DNA of 64,000 nt, taken from the NCBI GenBank assembly GCA_043819555.1, contig JBDREQ010000009.1, positions 99,006-163,005 of the forward strand, written 5' to 3'. Numbering within the stretch: the first letter of the stretch is position 1; every line of letters begins with the position of its first letter. Positions 13,906 through 32,873 of this stretch are shown piece after piece. Made by a program: the position numbers and the translations under genes. Below the pieces are notes generated by a model. It saw only the letters and a program-made list of their open reading frames with translations, searched no databases and had not been told where the DNA came from. The DNA comes from Candidatus Zixiibacteriota bacterium (GTDB taxonomy: Bacteria; Zixibacteria; MSB-5A5; GN15; JAAZOE01).

Positions 13906-14472
13906 ATGATTGACTCAAAAAGGCTGGTTCATAAGATTTTGGCTGGAAACAAATCGGCCTTCCGTGATTTGATAAATCAATACCAACGCCTTGTCAGTCA
14001 TATAGTTTATCGAATGATAAAACGGGAGACGGACCAGGAAGATATTTGTCAGGAGGTCTTTATTAAAGTGTATCAGAATCTTGGAAATTTCCGCTTCGAT
14101 TGCAAACTCTCGACCTGGATAGCCAGAATCTCCTACACTACCTGTCTGAATTTTCTGGAAAAGAAAAAACTTCCGTTTTATGAAGATTTGGGAGATGAGG
14201 GCAGTTCGTTTGAACCGGCTGACAGCCAAGTCAAAAGGCCTGATTATCAGTTTGCTCAAAAGGATATTTCTTCTATATTAAAGCAGGAAATTGAAAATAT
14301 CCCGCCGGTTTATCAGACGATTGTGACTTTATATCATATTGATGAAATGAGTTACACCGAAATCGCCGATATAATGAAAATGCCGGAAGGAACCGTAAAA
14401 AGTTATCTTTTTCGAGCCCGGCGCATGTTAAAAGATAAATTGCTGACAAAATATAATCGGGAGGAATTGTGA
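13906..14472 (+). CDS. ECF RNA polymerase sigma-70 factor (SigW/RpoE-like)
   Basis: EDICQEVFIKVY, STWIARI (region 2) and MSYTEIADIMKMPEGTVKSYLFRAR (region 4). Confidence 0.93.
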   Translation: MIDSKRLVHKILAGNKSAFRDLINQYQRLVSHIVYRMIKRETDQEDICQEVFIKVYQNLGNFRFDCKLSTWIARISYTTCLNFLEKKKLPFYEDLGDEGSSFEPADSQVKRPDYQFAQKDISSILKQEIENIPPVYQTIVTLYHIDEMSYTEIADIMKMPEGTVKSYLFRARRMLKDKLLTKYNREEL

Positions 14473-27220: not shown

Positions 27221-27586
27221 ATGTGGCGTAAAATTATTTTAGTCATGTTCGCGGCTCTAATATTGTTGGCTGCGTCATCGCCGGTTTTGGCCTACGACCC
27301 AAGGTGCCGACTCCCCTTCGGTGAACCATCAAACGATGAACACCCCTGGGGCGATGAAAACTATTCCAATGAACGACCCCTTATCGGATACGACCGAGTG
27401 TACACATTAACGGGAAATTATGATTTGATTTCCATAGCGGTACAGGGCGTCTGGGACAGCGCGGTTGGCAAAGCTAAGGAAATATTTGGCCTGCAGAATT
27501 CGCAAGCGCGAACTGCGACGGTTTCAGAAACCAGGACAATGCGAATTTACAATTCCCGGAAACCATCTGCGATGAGGAAAAGGTAA
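27221..27586 (+). CDS. Small secreted protein (candidate signalling pro-peptide)
   Basis: RBS GCAAGGAG; Sec signal MWRKIILVMFAALILLAASSPVLA; mature part contains NDEHPWGDE. Stop is 2 nt before the bEBP start. Confidence 0.75.
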   Translation: MWRKIILVMFAALILLAASSPVLAYDPRCRLPFGEPSNDEHPWGDENYSNERPLIGYDRVYTLTGNYDLISIAVQGVWDSAVGKAKEIFGLQNSQARTATVSETRTMRIYNSRKPSAMRKR

Positions 27587-27588
27587 TC

Positions 27589-29847
27589 ATGAGTCAAACT
27601 TTAAACACGAAATCGGATGTCCGGTTTGAATTATTGCGACAATTGTCGCAATCGATTCAGCGAGGAGATATTTCCGGTGGTCTGCGCATGGCGAAACAAA
27701 TACGCCAAAAAATGATCGCGGAAAAAGATCTTCTGGCCGGACAATTTCGGTGTCTTGAAGCGAAGCTCTGGCTATTGTCCGGTGATTACCATAAATCCCT
27801 CACGTCGGCGCGCGTGTCAGCTTCTTTCCTGACGCCATTTGGCGAATCGGAAGAACTGGCCGAAGCGTTTCTAATAGCAGGGAAGTCATTGATTAATATC
27901 GGTAATTACCGCGAAGCGGAAACAGCATTTTTAGACGCCGATTCACTTTACCGCAGGACCGACAATGATGCCGGTCGCATAAATGCGGTTAACCAACTGG
28001 CCCGAGTCAGCTTCATCCACGCCGAGTACAAAAGCGCGTTGAAGTATCTACTTGAAGCGATAAAACTTGCGGAGAAGACGGGCGACCGCAAAAAACTGGC
28101 TTTTTTATGGGGCAACCTTGGACGAGTCTATACGTTTTTGGGAAACTTCAAAAAAGCCAAAGAATCTCTCAAAATGGATCTTCAGCTTTGTGATGAATTT
28201 GACAATGAGAACGAGAGGGCAAAGGCACTGTTATCTCTCGGTTATATAGAGATGCAGCAAGAGAGATATGAAAAGGCCGAACAGCGATACGATGAGGCCA
28301 ATTTGATTCTTAAACGGCTGGACATGAAACGCGAACTCATAATCAGCCAGACGTATTATGGTGAATTAAGACTCAAATGCGGTGATCTGTCCGCGTCCAG
28401 GCGTTTATTGAATGAGGCGGCTGAGACGGCCAGGACAATGGCTCCCGAATCGTCGCTTCTGGTTATGCCTCTTCGGCTTCTGGCAGAGCTTGAATTGACC
28501 GGCTGTAGTTACAGTTCTGCATCGCGTTTGGCCAACAAGGCTTATGATTTGGCTCGAAAGATAAATGAGCCGATCGAAAAGGCCTGTGCACTAAGAATTA
28601 TTGCACAAATAGATTTCGCGAAAAAGCCGGAATGCATCAAAACTGTCGAGAAAACCCGGCAGACATTTCTAAAAGTTCTTGAAATAATGCATGATTATGA
28701 TGCCCGGTTTGAATTAGCGGAAACTCTGGTAATAATGGCTGAATGCGGTATTAGCTCTCAACGCCGCCGATTGGCTAATCTATTCCGAGCGAGTGATATA
28801 TATAATCGACTGGGAATAGAATCAAAGCTGGAAAAAACTCAGAAGCTTATCAATCAATCTGAAATTTCCACGGCTTCACCAAGAAAATCAAAACCAAAGC
28901 CTGCCTCGAATGCGCCAGTGATAATTACAATCAATGCCCGTATGGAAAAGATAATGGAGCAAATAGCCCTGGCGGCCAGGTCGGAATTGCCGGTTTTACT
29001 AATGGGCGAAACCGGAACCGGTAAGGACCTGCTGGCCAAATATTATCACAGCCATACCGGTCGGACGGGTGATTTTGTGGCAATAAATTGCGCCGCCTTT
29101 CCCGATACGCTTCTCGAGGCTGAGCTCTTTGGATACCGCAAAGGCGCATTTACCGGCGCCGGGGCTGATAAAGAGGGGCTCTTGCATCGCGCCAGCGGTG
29201 GAACATTCTTCCTTGATGAAATCGGAGAGATGTCGTTCATATCGCAGGCGAAATTATTGTCGGTGATTGAAACCTGCCGAACTCGACGGCTGGGTGGAAC
29301 CGAAGAAGAAAGCCTGGATATCAGGTTCATTGCCGCCACAAACTGTAATTTGGCTGAAATGGTTGATGACGGTACCTTCCGGAGAGATCTTTTTTATCGC
29401 CTGAGTGGAATCTGTTTTAAGATTCCCTCACTTGCGGAAAGACCGGAGGATATACCGATATTATTGAGACATTTTCTCGAGAGAGAAAACGCTTTGATAA
29501 AAGATCAAGACCTCGATCCGGAATTGATTAATCAATTCACATCGAGGACATGGCCTGGAAACATCAGACAGCTTGAATCGGAAGTCAAAAAGCTGGTATT
29601 GTTTTCGGAGATCGCTCGGGAGGATTCACTTGGCGATCTGGCTGAAATCCTGGTCCAGAATGATGGTGACAACGAAACCATAACTTTGATGAATCAGGTG
29701 GAACAGTTCGAGAAGGCATTGATTATCAAAGCCCTTCGCGGGTCGAGCGGGAATAAATCCCTCGCCGCGCGGACTTTGTCAATTCATGAATCGACCCTTC
29801 GGGCGAAAATGAAACGATATGATCTGAGTATGAGCATGATATCGTAA
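27589..29847 (+). CDS. TPR-repeat sigma54-dependent transcriptional activator (bEBP; TPR-AAA+-Fis HTH)
   Basis: About 430 aa of TPR-like helical repeats, then GETGTGKD, ELFGYRKGAFTGA, FFLDEIGEM, FRRDLFYRL, WPGNIRQL and HTH GNKSLAARTLSIHESTLRAKM. No receiver domain. Confidence 0.93.
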   Translation: MSQTLNTKSDVRFELLRQLSQSIQRGDISGGLRMAKQIRQKMIAEKDLLAGQFRCLEAKLWLLSGDYHKSLTSARVSASFLTPFGESEELAEAFLIAGKSLINIGNYREAETAFLDADSLYRRTDNDAGRINAVNQLARVSFIHAEYKSALKYLLEAIKLAEKTGDRKKLAFLWGNLGRVYTFLGNFKKAKESLKMDLQLCDEFDNENERAKALLSLGYIEMQQERYEKAEQRYDEANLILKRLDMKRELIISQTYYGELRLKCGDLSASRRLLNEAAETARTMAPESSLLVMPLRLLAELELTGCSYSSASRLANKAYDLARKINEPIEKACALRIIAQIDFAKKPECIKTVEKTRQTFLKVLEIMHDYDARFELAETLVIMAECGISSQRRRLANLFRASDIYNRLGIESKLEKTQKLINQSEISTASPRKSKPKPASNAPVIITINARMEKIMEQIALAARSELPVLLMGETGTGKDLLAKYYHSHTGRTGDFVAINCAAFPDTLLEAELFGYRKGAFTGAGADKEGLLHRASGGTFFLDEIGEMSFISQAKLLSVIETCRTRRLGGTEEESLDIRFIAATNCNLAEMVDDGTFRRDLFYRLSGICFKIPSLAERPEDIPILLRHFLERENALIKDQDLDPELINQFTSRTWPGNIRQLESEVKKLVLFSEIAREDSLGDLAEILVQNDGDNETITLMNQVEQFEKALIIKALRGSSGNKSLAARTLSIHESTLRAKMKRYDLSMSMIS

Positions 29848-29945
29848 ATTCATACGAATAAACACACTTCTTGCTAATAAGGGTAAGTTCTTATTTATTC
29901 AGGGCTTACCCTTTTTTTGTATCCGTATCGTAAAATCAAACGAAT
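29840..29945. promoter_or_regulatory. Two enhancer (UAS)-like repeats
   Basis: TATCGTAAATTCATACGAAT (29840-29859) and TATCGTAAAATCAAACGAAT (29926-29945) are 18/20 identical, each with TCGT...ACGA dyad symmetry. Confidence 0.65.
29879..29918 (+). terminator. Intrinsic terminator of the bEBP operon
   Basis: AAGGGTAAG...CTTACCCTT stem followed by a T-run. Confidence 0.8.
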
Positions 29946-30031: not shown

Positions 30032-30047
30032 AGGCACAAACCTTGCT
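30032..30047 (+). promoter_or_regulatory. Sigma54 -24/-12 promoter
   Basis: AGGCACAAACCTTGCT: GG (30033-34), 10 nt, GC (30045-46), matching GGCAC-N5-TTGC. An IHF-like TAAGTGATTGTTT lies at 29979-29991. Confidence 0.8.
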
Positions 30048-30057
30048 ATAGGATTTG

Positions 30058-30150
30058 TGTCATTTTTAGCTCCTTTTTGCGCTGCTTTAATAGTCCTTTT
30101 TTCTCGGTTGGCCACCCGTACTTGAGGGGAGTACGGGGGCCATTTTAATT
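30058..30150 (+). ncRNA. Candidate sigma54-dependent small RNA with anti-Shine-Dalgarno motifs
   Basis: Lies between the sigma54 promoter and a GC-rich hairpin (30109-30142) followed by TTTTAATTT. No credible ORF. Contains GTCATTTTTAGCTCCTTTTT and TAGTCCTTTTTT. Confidence 0.55.
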
Positions 30151-30226
30151 TATGGATAAAACTGTTTTTCAATCAGTCCAAGAAATTAATTGTATAAAGC
30201 CATGAAGAGATATATTTTGGAGCGAT

Positions 30227-30739
30227 ATGAAAATTTGCCGTGTTATTGTTTTGGTATTAATGATTACCGCCGCCGTCTGGGCGGATCCTGGACAGGAAAG
30301 ACATAATCCATTTCAGCTGTCGTCATTGGACGGAGAATGGGAAGGAATGGGCGAAGCGGTAATTCCCATGACGAAAATCCCGATTTCACTCGAGGGTGAA
30401 GCGGTTTTCAAATATGATTCTGCCCTGGGATATCTGCGGACTTCCATTATTGCGAAAAAGTTCTTTTTTTCTTATGCCGATTCAGGACATCTATATCATG
30501 ATCCCAGGACCGACTCCATTATCTGGGAAGTTTGGGACGGCTTCGGAAAATATGGAAAATATCACGGCATACTAAATGAACGGATGCTTACGGGAATGCT
30601 TATTAAGGGAAAAAGGCGGTTTGATATCGAAATCGATTTCGTGACAGACGATAGCCTCACTTTTGGTATGTCCAGCCAGAAACAAACTGATGAAATTCAG
30701 CCTCGTGCCAATATCAGTCTCTGGCGCGTAAAAAAATAA
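30227..30739 (+). CDS. Hypothetical secreted protein
   Basis: Signal peptide (MKICRVIVLVLMITAAVWA); LDGEWEG and a beta-rich pattern suggest a lipocalin-like barrel. Confidence 0.65.
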   Translation: MKICRVIVLVLMITAAVWADPGQERHNPFQLSSLDGEWEGMGEAVIPMTKIPISLEGEAVFKYDSALGYLRTSIIAKKFFFSYADSGHLYHDPRTDSIIWEVWDGFGKYGKYHGILNERMLTGMLIKGKRRFDIEIDFVTDDSLTFGMSSQKQTDEIQPRANISLWRVKK

Positions 30740-30800
30740 TTCCTCAGTCTTATTTCCCGAGCTGTTGAATCCTGTGGGTATTTTTTATATATATACTCCC

Positions 30801-31331
30801 ATGGAAGATTATCATAAAAACCGAAGAGAAGAATTGATGAGCATGCCCAAAGAAAAACTCATCGGTATGCTCGAAGATGCCGCCAAAAACTGGCTGGCGC
30901 ATGACGGACTATGGTTTTTGACGGTCGAGTCTGAACATGGCCTTGAAAACGCAATCTCGCATGATACAAACGCGTGGGAGAAATTTACCGTCATCGAAGC
31001 CCGGCGGATTATGAAACGTCAGGGTATCGAGCCAAATTCTGGTCTGGAAGGATTAAAACAGGCTCTAAAATATCGGCTCTATGCACATCTCAATATCCAG
31101 GAAATTGTTGATGAAATGAAAAAAAGTTTTATATTCAGGATGAATGACTGCCGGGTCCAGTCGGCTCGCAAAAGGGACGGACGTCCTGATTTCCCCTGTA
31201 AACCGGTTGGGTTAGTCGAATACGCTTTATTTGCCTCAACGATTGACTCCCGGATTAAAACAGAATGTGTTTGCTGTCCGCCCGATGATCACCCCGAAAA
31301 TTACTATTGTTCCTGGAAATTCTCCATTTAA
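30801..31331 (+). CDS. DUF6125-family (4VR-like) protein
   Basis: KNWLAHDGLWF, MNDCRVQSARKR...FPCK and CCPPDDHP...CSWKF. Confidence 0.75.
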   Translation: MEDYHKNRREELMSMPKEKLIGMLEDAAKNWLAHDGLWFLTVESEHGLENAISHDTNAWEKFTVIEARRIMKRQGIEPNSGLEGLKQALKYRLYAHLNIQEIVDEMKKSFIFRMNDCRVQSARKRDGRPDFPCKPVGLVEYALFASTIDSRIKTECVCCPPDDHPENYYCSWKFSI

Positions 31332-31695: not shown

Positions 31696-32873
31696 TTGGA
31701 TTCGACACGATTGAGGAGTATTCAGGGGGAATTGGCCCGTTTGGGATTAGACGGATGGCTGATATATGATTTTCATGGTCAAAACGATGTCGCCGTTAGC
31801 TTTTTGGGGCTTTCCGGAATAATTACCCACCGCTCATTTTATTTCATACCAGCCAGCGGACAACCAATCGCTTTTATTCACAATGTTGAAAAAAAACCGT
31901 TTGAATTATTACCGGGACGCAAGTTTTTTTACTCATCTTATCGCCTGCTTGAAGAAGAGCTGGCCCGGGAGCTGAAAGGCAAAAAGCGTCTGGCAATGGA
32001 ATATTCCGAAAAAGGCCGTTTGCCATATATCGGAAAAGTTGATGCCGGCACCATTGAACTGATTCGATCGTTTGGAGTGGAAGTTGTCACATCGGGCAAT
32101 CTGGTTGCAAAATTCGATGCCTGTTTGACCCCGGATCAGGTTATCATGCAAAAAGATGCGGCGGAAAGTATCAATCGCATAAAAGACGAAGCATTTACTT
32201 TTATTAAGGATAAATTGAACGGTGGCGAGGTTTTAACCGAGTATGAAGTAGTTCGATATATCATGGATAAATTTGCCCGGGCAGGGATGACGACTGACCA
32301 TCCCCCGATTTGCGCCGTCGGACCCAATGCCGGCAATCCTCATTATGTCCCGACCGCTGATAATTGCGCCAAAATTAAAAATGACAATTTGGTGCTTATT
32401 GACCTTTGGCCAAGCTGCAAAAACCAAGATCGGTCTTCGCCGATATAACCTGGATGGCTTATACCGGCAGCGATCTGCCGGAAGAGTACGTCAGAAATTT
32501 CGCATTGATATGTATGGCTCGTGATGCGGCGGTCGATTTTTTGATCACAAACTGGGGACAGAAAAACATTTTTGGGTACCAGGTTGATGATGTTTGCCGG
32601 GGCGTGATAGCGGCCGACGACCTGGGGGATTATTTCACGCATCGCACCGGACACTCCATCGCCGAATCGGTTCATGGCTCCGGGCCAAATATCGATAACC
32701 TTGAAACTGAAGACCGCCGACTGTTGATGCCGGGGCATCTGTTTTCGATAGAACCTGGATTGTATTTTAAAGATTATGGCGTTCGGACGGAAATTGACGT
32801 ATTAATTGATGAGACCGGCCCGGTTATTACCACCCTGCCGGTACAGGAAGAAATTATCCGTTTGCTCGCGTAA
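31696..32873 (+). pseudogene. Xaa-Pro aminopeptidase (M24B) split by a 1-nt frameshift
   Basis: ORF 31696-32448 (..NPHY..LVLIDLW) continues in ORF 32406-32873 (AK..FADITW, HRTGHSI, FSIEPGLY, GVRTE). TGG-GCC lacks one G near 32409. Could be a sequencing error. Confidence 0.8.

Follow-up and report, generated by a model that had tools for sequence, protein, structure and literature searches.

A conserved small RNA gene of a Zixibacteria order with a predicted sigma-54 promoter and probable anti-sigma factor targets

Between the gene of a sigma-54 enhancer-binding protein and a gene that begins at 30227 lies a short stretch of DNA that raises three questions: does it hold an RNA gene of its own, what controls this gene, and which mRNAs would its product act on? 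The DNA is from Candidatus Zixiibacteriota bacterium (GCA_043819555.1; own genome 3.35 Mb, 97% complete). The window, i.e. the whole stretch of 64,000 nucleotides that was analysed, covers positions 99,006-163,005 of JBDREQ010000009.1 on the forward strand, and positions without a contig label are those of the window. A preliminary description, made from the letters of the window, had proposed a sigma-54 driven small RNA that reads as the antisense of a translation-initiation region and acts in trans on ribosome-binding sites. We consider it fairly probable that the locus encodes a trans-acting RNA of about 93 nt, belonging to one order of Zixibacteria, that is driven by sigma-54 and its activator and blocks the translation starts of anti-sigma factor genes. 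The features of the locus are listed in Table 1.

Table 1. Features of the small RNA locus in window coordinates
Feature	Position	Strand	Remarks
Small exported protein gene	27221..27586	+	121 aa, signal peptide, motif DEHPWG; stops 2 nt ahead of the activator gene
Sigma-54 enhancer-binding protein gene (activator)	27589..29847	+	752 aa; Pfam domains as given in the text
Distal enhancer-like palindrome TCGTAAATTCATACGA	29842..29857	.	Overlaps the activator stop codon; 191 bp 5' of the promoter GG
Intrinsic terminator of the activator gene	29881..29918	+	GGGTAAG / CTTACCC then T7; read from the sequence
Proximal enhancer-like palindrome TCGTAAAATCAAACGA	29928..29943	.	105 bp 5' of the promoter GG
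Sigma-54 promoter GGCAC-N5-TTGCT (-24 GG, -12 GC)	30033..30047	+	Only pattern match in the window; conserved
Small RNA, ~93 nt	30057..30149	+	5' end predicted from the promoter, 3' end from the U-run
Seed A, 5' end UGUCAUUUUUAGCUCCUUUUUG	30058..30079	+	Complement of Shine-Dalgarno, spacer and AUG; predicted unpaired; conserved across the order
Seed B GUCCUUUUUUCUCGG	30093..30107	+	Invariant in 14/14 family genomes
Terminator hairpin and U-rich tail	30110..30151	+	Stem 30110-30122 (GGCCACCCGTACT) / 30130-30141 (AGTACGGGGGCC), loop UGAGGGG (TGAGGGG in the DNA) 30123-30129

The preliminary description had named two pyrimidine motifs, a hairpin and a U-rich tail, and all of these were located where it had placed them. 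The promoter match GGCAC-N5-TTGCT has its GG at -24 and its GC at -12, the spacing of TGGCAC-N5-TTGCW. The GC at 30045-30046 puts the predicted start of transcription at 30057-30058, so that the transcript would begin (G)UGUCAUUUUUAGCUCCUUUUUG. In brief, the first motif, GTCATTTTTAGCTCCTTTTT, starts at 30059, and the second, TAGTCCTTTTTT, lies at 30091-30102 within the transcript stretch UAGUCCUUUUUUCUCGG (30091-30107). Both pyrimidine-rich stretches are predicted to be unpaired. The ATG on the minus strand opens an ORF of five codons, as had also been stated. The G+C-rich hairpin at 30110-30141, with a centroid energy of -25 kcal/mol, is followed directly on its 3' side by ATTTTAATTT (30142-30151) and has the make-up of an intrinsic terminator. 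The U-run is interrupted here (AUUUUAAUUU) and stronger in the relatives. A simple terminator scan did not flag the hairpin, the stem of which contains a bulged A.

Taken alone, the promoter match and the fold are within or near chance, and the feature is judged to be real because it is conserved. The promoter pattern has one match in the window against 0.5 expected, and 40 of 100 shuffles contain at least one. The fold is mildly better than that of shuffled sequences (z -1.86; equalled by 6 of 200 shuffles). BLASTN found the region in all 13 other genomes of the same family. When the 14 family genomes were aligned, the conserved block ran exactly from the promoter to the U-run. Within this block the GGCA and TTGCT columns are invariant, in agreement with a -24/-12 promoter and with the sigma-54 control of the preliminary description, unlike the upstream flank of the promoter, which is unconserved. 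The motif is found with equal spacing in 15 of 16 inspected, more distant loci (family f3), and rpoN is encoded in the own genome (Sigma54_DBD, 194 bits, contig C57). Conservation of the pyrimidine motifs in homologous loci had been named as a check on the RNA reading; GTCCTTTTTTCTCGG and seed B are invariant in the 14 family genomes.

The terminator provides the second line of evidence that the feature is real. Among 43 distinct sequences, compensatory changes were found in all 11 pairs of the stem, with 96.2% of the cells paired, and none of 500 shuffles matched this. The RNAalifold structure also contains the terminator, and 9 of 16 pairs have compensatory changes. The GAGGGG loop does not vary within the family, and almost every member seen across the order has it, L121 being the one with a different loop; none of the pairings proposed below accounts for it. 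A pseudoknot between this loop and the pyrimidine linker can be drawn by eye. It is beyond the covariation test, because any pyrimidine run can pair with a G-run.

A covariance model, which the preliminary description had called for, found one copy of the RNA in 100 of the 151 genomes of the order. By family, the family model gave one match per genome in 13/13 genomes of f1, 5/5 of f2, 78/99 of f3 and 3/33 of f4. A broader model matched 9/9, 3/3, 52/55 and 2/15 genomes of the same four families, and none of 68 genomes from fifteen further families of the phylum. The match in the own genome (G000:C9:129062-129154) corresponds to 30057-30149 of the window; the gene is single copy there and has no paralogue. 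The Rfam search that had been suggested as a further check (Rfam 15) gave nothing overlapping 30032-30150 at E <= 10. An exact-pattern scan of approximately 185,000 species genomes gave 117 loci against an estimated 87 or so chance matches, and 28 of the 117 have the GAGGGG loop downstream. These 28 are labelled Zixibacteria or Zixiibacteriota, uncultured Ignavibacteriales, one Calditrichaeota MAG and one 'FCB group' MAG, and the labels other than Zixibacteria are taken to be mislabelled Zixibacteria. A search of sequencing runs for the locus listed no RNA run; the matches were two DNA runs, for which the share of words was 5-6%. The form of the RNA in f4 (L301 and L302; G038 and G044) has about 10 extra bases between the promoter and GUCAU, and a different middle part.

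The conserved block could also be the leader of an mRNA, with the genes at 30227 and 30765 (DUF6125) transcribed from the promoter and the hairpin serving as a regulated terminator. Consistent with this, the DUF6125 gene is found downstream on the same strand in 13 of the 14 family loci and a 170-aa gene in 7 of the 14, and the U-run of the own genome is interrupted (ATTTTAATTT). However, neither the DUF6125 gene nor the 170-aa gene is found downstream in any of 16 loci of families f2 and f3. The RNA and its promoter are kept there beside different neighbours (putative BMC shell genes, dehydrogenases or others), with a convergent nearest ORF in 4 of the 16. Moreover, the sequence 3' of the U-run is unconserved even within the family. 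We find a leader or attenuator highly unlikely. As the downstream genes differ by family and are convergent in 4/16 loci, the transcript is predicted to stand alone and not to be the 5' UTR of the 30227 gene, in line with the preliminary description.

The 5' end of the transcript invites one more reading, as a leaderless mRNA that encodes a tiny hydrophobic peptide from a 5'-terminal GTG or ATG. An ATG, GTG or TTG is present two bases before TCAT in 31 of 39 sequences, and the ORF in the window has 22 codons and a hydrophobic product. Across the sequences, however, ORF length ranges from 2 to more than 35 codons and 1-nt indels are tolerated, by which the peptide is largely refuted; only its first five residues are common, because the nucleotides are conserved. 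The chance that the locus works in this manner is very slight. Judged from the comparative evidence, the locus is a conserved stand-alone RNA gene, and its product a new RNA family of a known kind.

Some observations were made on the genes 3' of the RNA. The DUF6125 gene is located at 30765-31331 (Pfam 2.8e-78). Two overlapping ORFs on the same strand (31696-32873; 250 aa and 155 aa, in different frames) resemble the two halves of one aminopeptidase-like gene, which suggests a frameshift or an assembly error. By eye, the genes located 60-1000 nt 3' of the RNA in five of the 16 distant loci (L043, L045, L049, L052 and L054 of f3) resemble bacterial microcompartment (BMC) shell genes, with one for a tandem BMC-type protein. 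In L049 and L054 the protein next after the BMC-type protein is EutN/CcmL-like, as judged from the sequences.

An orthologue of the activator gene is located directly 5' of the RNA gene in 29 of 30 loci. The activator encoded in the window matches Sigma54_activat (2.3e-59), TPR_12, AAA_lid_14 and HTH_8 in Pfam. In brief, it has a MalT-like TPR N-terminus, an AAA+ sigma-54 interaction domain, an AAA lid and a Fis-type HTH, and is without a receiver domain. Over the terminator of the activator gene (29881-29918) there is an Rfam match to 'sbrA' that is weak and at chance level (20 bits against a gathering score of 45, E = 1).

Two copies of a palindrome with the consensus TCGTA-N6-TACGA are found approximately 110 and 200 bp 5' of the promoter. 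We suggest that these enhancer-like palindromes are putative binding sites of the activator. The proximal site, [TC]CG[TC]A-N6-[TAC]ACG[AG], is present at -103 to -128 in all 29 loci of families f1 and f3, and the distal site at -191 to -208 in 17 of the 29. The strict motif has 7 matches in the 3.35-Mb genome, where composition predicts 7.6. Among these seven, only those at 29842-29857 and 29928-29943 lie near a sigma-54 promoter, and because only these two adjoin one, the data suggest that the RNA is the sole direct output of the activator.

The product of the small gene ahead of the activator (27221-27586) matched no Pfam family. Of 12 relatives examined, 11 likewise have, directly 5' of the activator gene, a small ORF whose product has a hydrophobic N-terminus and the motif (E/D)(H/Q)PWGG; the remaining relative is G047, for which the start of the activator was not located. 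The exported protein, as predicted from its signal peptide, could be the signal or the partner of the activator.

For the targets, the 14 family genomes were scanned for the complement of the 5' end of the RNA, and the RNA gene itself was also recovered. Perfect second sites are present in genomes G010 and G004, with complementarity of 19 and 23 nt. Both sites consist of the Shine-Dalgarno sequence, spacer and AUG of a zf-HC2 anti-sigma gene located 25 nt after an ECF sigma gene. The orthologous ECF sigma/anti-sigma operons were taken from 30 genomes, and the RNAs of further genomes were added. The start of the anti-sigma gene (anti-sigma 1) was set by the position of its HxxxCxxC motif. This left 22 of 24 genomes usable, with G006 and G015 dropped since the rule found no start in them.

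The cognate duplexes of seed A and anti-sigma 1 have a mean of -25.6 kcal/mol against -20.5 kcal/mol for non-cognate ones (22 genomes, 20 distinct pairs; three f3 genomes of one genus carry identical sequences). Cognate duplexes in f3 range from -21.7 to -41.5 kcal/mol, and unrelated start regions give a background median of -12 kcal/mol, with -25.9 kcal/mol as the best of 1500. The cognate mean was reached in 0 of 5000 permutations, and in 0 of 5000 within families, counts that are indicative and overstate independence because the genomes are related. With the register fixed on CAU:AUG, 82.6% of the positions pair, against 42-50% when it slides by 1-2 nt. For permuted partners in the fixed register the mean is 72.5% and the highest value 78.7%; 0 of 2000 permutations reach the cognate value.

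Several changes in the RNA are matched by changes in the target. G021 has UUGUU in the RNA and AACAA in the target, and G031 has UUCUU and AAGAA. The RNA of G008 and G013 reads GGUGCC and their target GGAACC, and ACGUCC in the RNA of G005 is matched by GGACG. From f1 to f3, a 1-nt deletion is found on both sides, with AGCUCC becoming ACUCC in the RNA and GGAGCU becoming GGAGU in the target.

The pairing is less evident in the genome of the window. The anti-sigma 1 start there (contig C76, 117286) reads GGAGGCUCUAAAUGUCA, and seed A pairs with it at -14.1 kcal/mol, the 28th percentile of the background. Similarly weak values, -12 to -14 kcal/mol, were obtained in G001, G012, G011 and G007. Nonetheless seed A is unchanged in the own genome, so either a short helix is enough or seed A is kept by some other target. 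The f4 genome G038, with its diverged RNA, showed no extended match at its anti-sigma 1 start. The antisense reading of the preliminary description is thus supported in the relatives by the covarying match to the anti-sigma start, and the own genome shows a match of no more than moderate strength (-14.1 kcal/mol).

Seed A is complementary to an idealised start region, and the RNA might then be a general one that has no dedicated target and, when induced, binds many strong starts (GGAG, A-rich spacer, AUG) and so damps translation broadly. In the own genome, 650 of 2829 start regions pair with seed A at -14 kcal/mol or better, against 338-551 in 15 shuffles, and the best matches are functionally mixed (DnaK, ferritin, Rrf2, ECF sigma). 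This excess over the shuffles is modest, however. A general effect would also not require the RNA and one orthologous start region to co-vary across genera, whereas seed A tracks anti-sigma 1 between lineages. We therefore see a general RNA of this type as unlikely. The comparative data support the occlusion of ribosome-binding sites in trans, as had been proposed, and narrow the predicted targets to anti-sigma factor mRNAs.

Other candidates for seed A were tried and rejected. Five of its 20 best matches among 2829 crude start regions of the own genome are in one cluster on contig C66 (fliM, fliO, fliP, flhG-like and PilZ); controls gave 0-2 matches in this cluster with 16 shuffles and one with the reversed seed. 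This flagellar lead comes from the own genome only, and the pairing is not kept in orthologues. With the fliM, fliO and fliP orthologues of 11-13 genomes seed A gave mostly -10 to -20 kcal/mol, and among 24 genomes the match to flhG was found in G000 alone. FlhA is encoded in 147 of the 151 genomes of the order, including all 33 of f4, and there is therefore no phyletic signal for flagellar targets. The cluster itself (G000:C66:2600-27600, minus strand) extends from fliK to flhA, flhF, flhG-like and fliA, followed by PilZ and GAF-kinase genes, and contains sigma-54 promoter-like motifs. The start of the ECF sigma gene itself pairs at -21.9 kcal/mol in G000 but at -7 to -20.6 kcal/mol elsewhere. 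On contig C17 a 98-aa ORF and a TPS-domain exoprotein gene have good seed-A matches, yet they do not form an operon and have no further support; by eye, the 98-aa ORF resembles a short DUF6125 relative. The start regions of neighbouring genes gave nothing convincing.

The predicted partner of seed B is AACCGAGAAUGGAGGA, which forms the Shine-Dalgarno region of another zf-HC2 anti-sigma gene (contig C51, 3496). This gene shares its operon with those of an ECF sigma factor and a trypsin-PDZ (HtrA-like) protease. Pairing energies are -18.8 to -22.6 kcal/mol in all 14 family genomes. The value for the own genome, -21.4 kcal/mol, is in the top 0.3% of 1200 start regions and ranks 6th of 2829. It should be noted that covariation is unusable for this target, because neither RNA nor mRNA varies within the family and part of the site is also coding sequence at the 3' end of the sigma gene. 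In f3, cognate pairs do not stand out, as 1813 of 5000 permutations do equally well. For these two reasons we rate the second anti-sigma gene as a family-specific candidate. A further ECF sigma paralogue is located in the window itself, at approximately 13912-14442 (G000:C9:112917-113447), with 26-27% identity to the query ECF sigma in tblastn.

The RNA could instead act on a protein, its pyrimidine-rich stretches and GAGGGG loop titrating an RNA-binding protein in the manner of CrcZ and Hfq. The order of the genes, activator followed by sigma-54 RNA gene, matches that of cbrB-crcZ as given in the cited part of PMC8871633. The invariant GAGGGG loop is left over by the base-pairing targets, and CsrA is present. 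However, RNAs that sequester CsrA/RsmA are recognised by multiple GGA hairpin loops, and the Zixibacteria RNA has a single G-rich loop. Neither GGA nor A-rich motifs are repeated in it, and the loop has an unconserved GGA, most family members having GAGGGGU. As for Hfq, the 97% complete genome gave no match to PF17209, and the RNA is short and has each motif once. The covariation with an mRNA start region argues for base pairing, and we regard protein sequestration as distinctly unlikely.

Base pairing with anti-sigma mRNAs thus remains our preferred reading. It is plausible for this organism in that the own genome has many strong Shine-Dalgarno motifs. We envisage the following mechanism. The TPR-AAA+-HTH activator, possibly in response to the small exported protein encoded ahead of it, would bind both TCGTA-N6-TACGA palindromes and then open the sigma-54 promoter at 30033-30047. 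Transcription would end at the covarying hairpin and the U-run. Seed A would then base-pair with the translation start of the zf-HC2 anti-sigma, which is the second gene of the ECF sigma/anti-sigma operon. With ribosome entry blocked, less anti-sigma would be made relative to the co-transcribed sigma factor, and the ECF sigma regulon would be turned on. In the family of the window, seed B may act likewise at the Shine-Dalgarno sequence of the anti-sigma in the ECF sigma/anti-sigma/HtrA-like operon.

More tentatively, we speculate that the locus is a three-part relay. The exported DEHPWGG protein and the cytoplasmic TPR activator would have a single RNA as their sole direct output. Through its two separate seeds this RNA would silence an anti-sigma gene in each of two different ECF sigma operons, of which the sigma/anti-sigma/HtrA operon is envelope-stress-like. 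The ECF sigma factors would then be released by halted synthesis of the anti-sigma and not by the usual regulated proteolysis. The set of targets would be drifting, with seed A strong in f3 and decayed in the genus of the window, and seed B specific to the family of the window. As a whole this relay is a possibility that we hold to be rather doubtful.

The predicted circuit couples two alternative sigma systems via an RNA: sigma-54 would drive the RNA, the RNA would repress the anti-sigma, and the ECF sigma would be released. It would be a route to ECF sigma activation without proteolysis of the anti-sigma. To our knowledge, Zixibacteria have no cultured member. A full-text literature search for Zixibacteria together with sRNA found no paper, and the RNA would therefore be the first regulatory RNA of the phylum with a predicted promoter, regulator and target. 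Natural compensatory changes are present in both RNA and target, and the prediction therefore lends itself to direct reporter-fusion assays in a laboratory host, with no need to cultivate the Zixibacteria themselves.

By sequence, the RNA is not a member of the CrcZ, Pxr or CJnc230 families (no Rfam match). According to the cited part of PMC8871633, the CrcZ gene is located directly 3' of cbrB as a separate unit, its sigma-N promoter is activated directly by CbrB, and the synteny is conserved in the Pseudomonadaceae; the Zixibacteria RNA gene is alike in adjoining the gene of its own predicted sigma-54 activator. CrcZ differs in that it titrates Hfq/Crc and in that its activator is a two-component response regulator. 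The Zixibacteria RNA, in contrast, is short and pyrimidine-rich and apparently pairs with mRNA, its activator has a TPR sensor and is without a receiver, and Hfq was not found in the own genome.

Pxr, an sRNA of approximately 108 nt, is encoded in the intergenic region after nla19, the gene of a sigma-54-dependent regulator, in Myxococcus and relatives, and the cited part of PMC5568312 describes a predicted sigma-54 promoter, an enhancer site and a lineage-restricted distribution. The locus studied here shares this arrangement: an sRNA gene behind the gene of a sigma-54 regulator, with its own predicted sigma-54 promoter and enhancer-like site, and restricted to one lineage. For Pxr no target is known according to the cited part of PMC11928866, whereas covariation points to one for the Zixibacteria RNA. 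The two RNAs are unrelated in sequence and fold: Pxr has three stem-loops and the Zixibacteria RNA an unpaired 5' half and one terminator.

The Qrr RNAs depend on Hfq and have several gene copies, whereas the Zixibacteria RNA is single copy and Hfq was not found in the own genome. LuxO is a response regulator, and the activator here has a TPR sensor. In the Qrr/LuxO system of Vibrio, as in the circuit proposed here, a sigma-54 activator has a small base-pairing RNA as its main output (cited parts of PMC4878744 and PMC11407668).

CJnc230 (FlmE) of Campylobacter jejuni is an RpoN-dependent sRNA that directly represses translation of the flgM anti-sigma mRNA and so raises the activity of another sigma factor (cited part of PMC11187230). 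The path from an RpoN-dependent RNA to the repression of an anti-sigma is the same as that predicted for the Zixibacteria RNA. However, CJnc230 is processed from the flgE mRNA and targets the anti-sigma-28 of the flagellar cascade, whereas the Zixibacteria RNA has a predicted promoter and activator of its own, and its probable targets are zf-HC2 anti-sigmas of ECF sigma factors.
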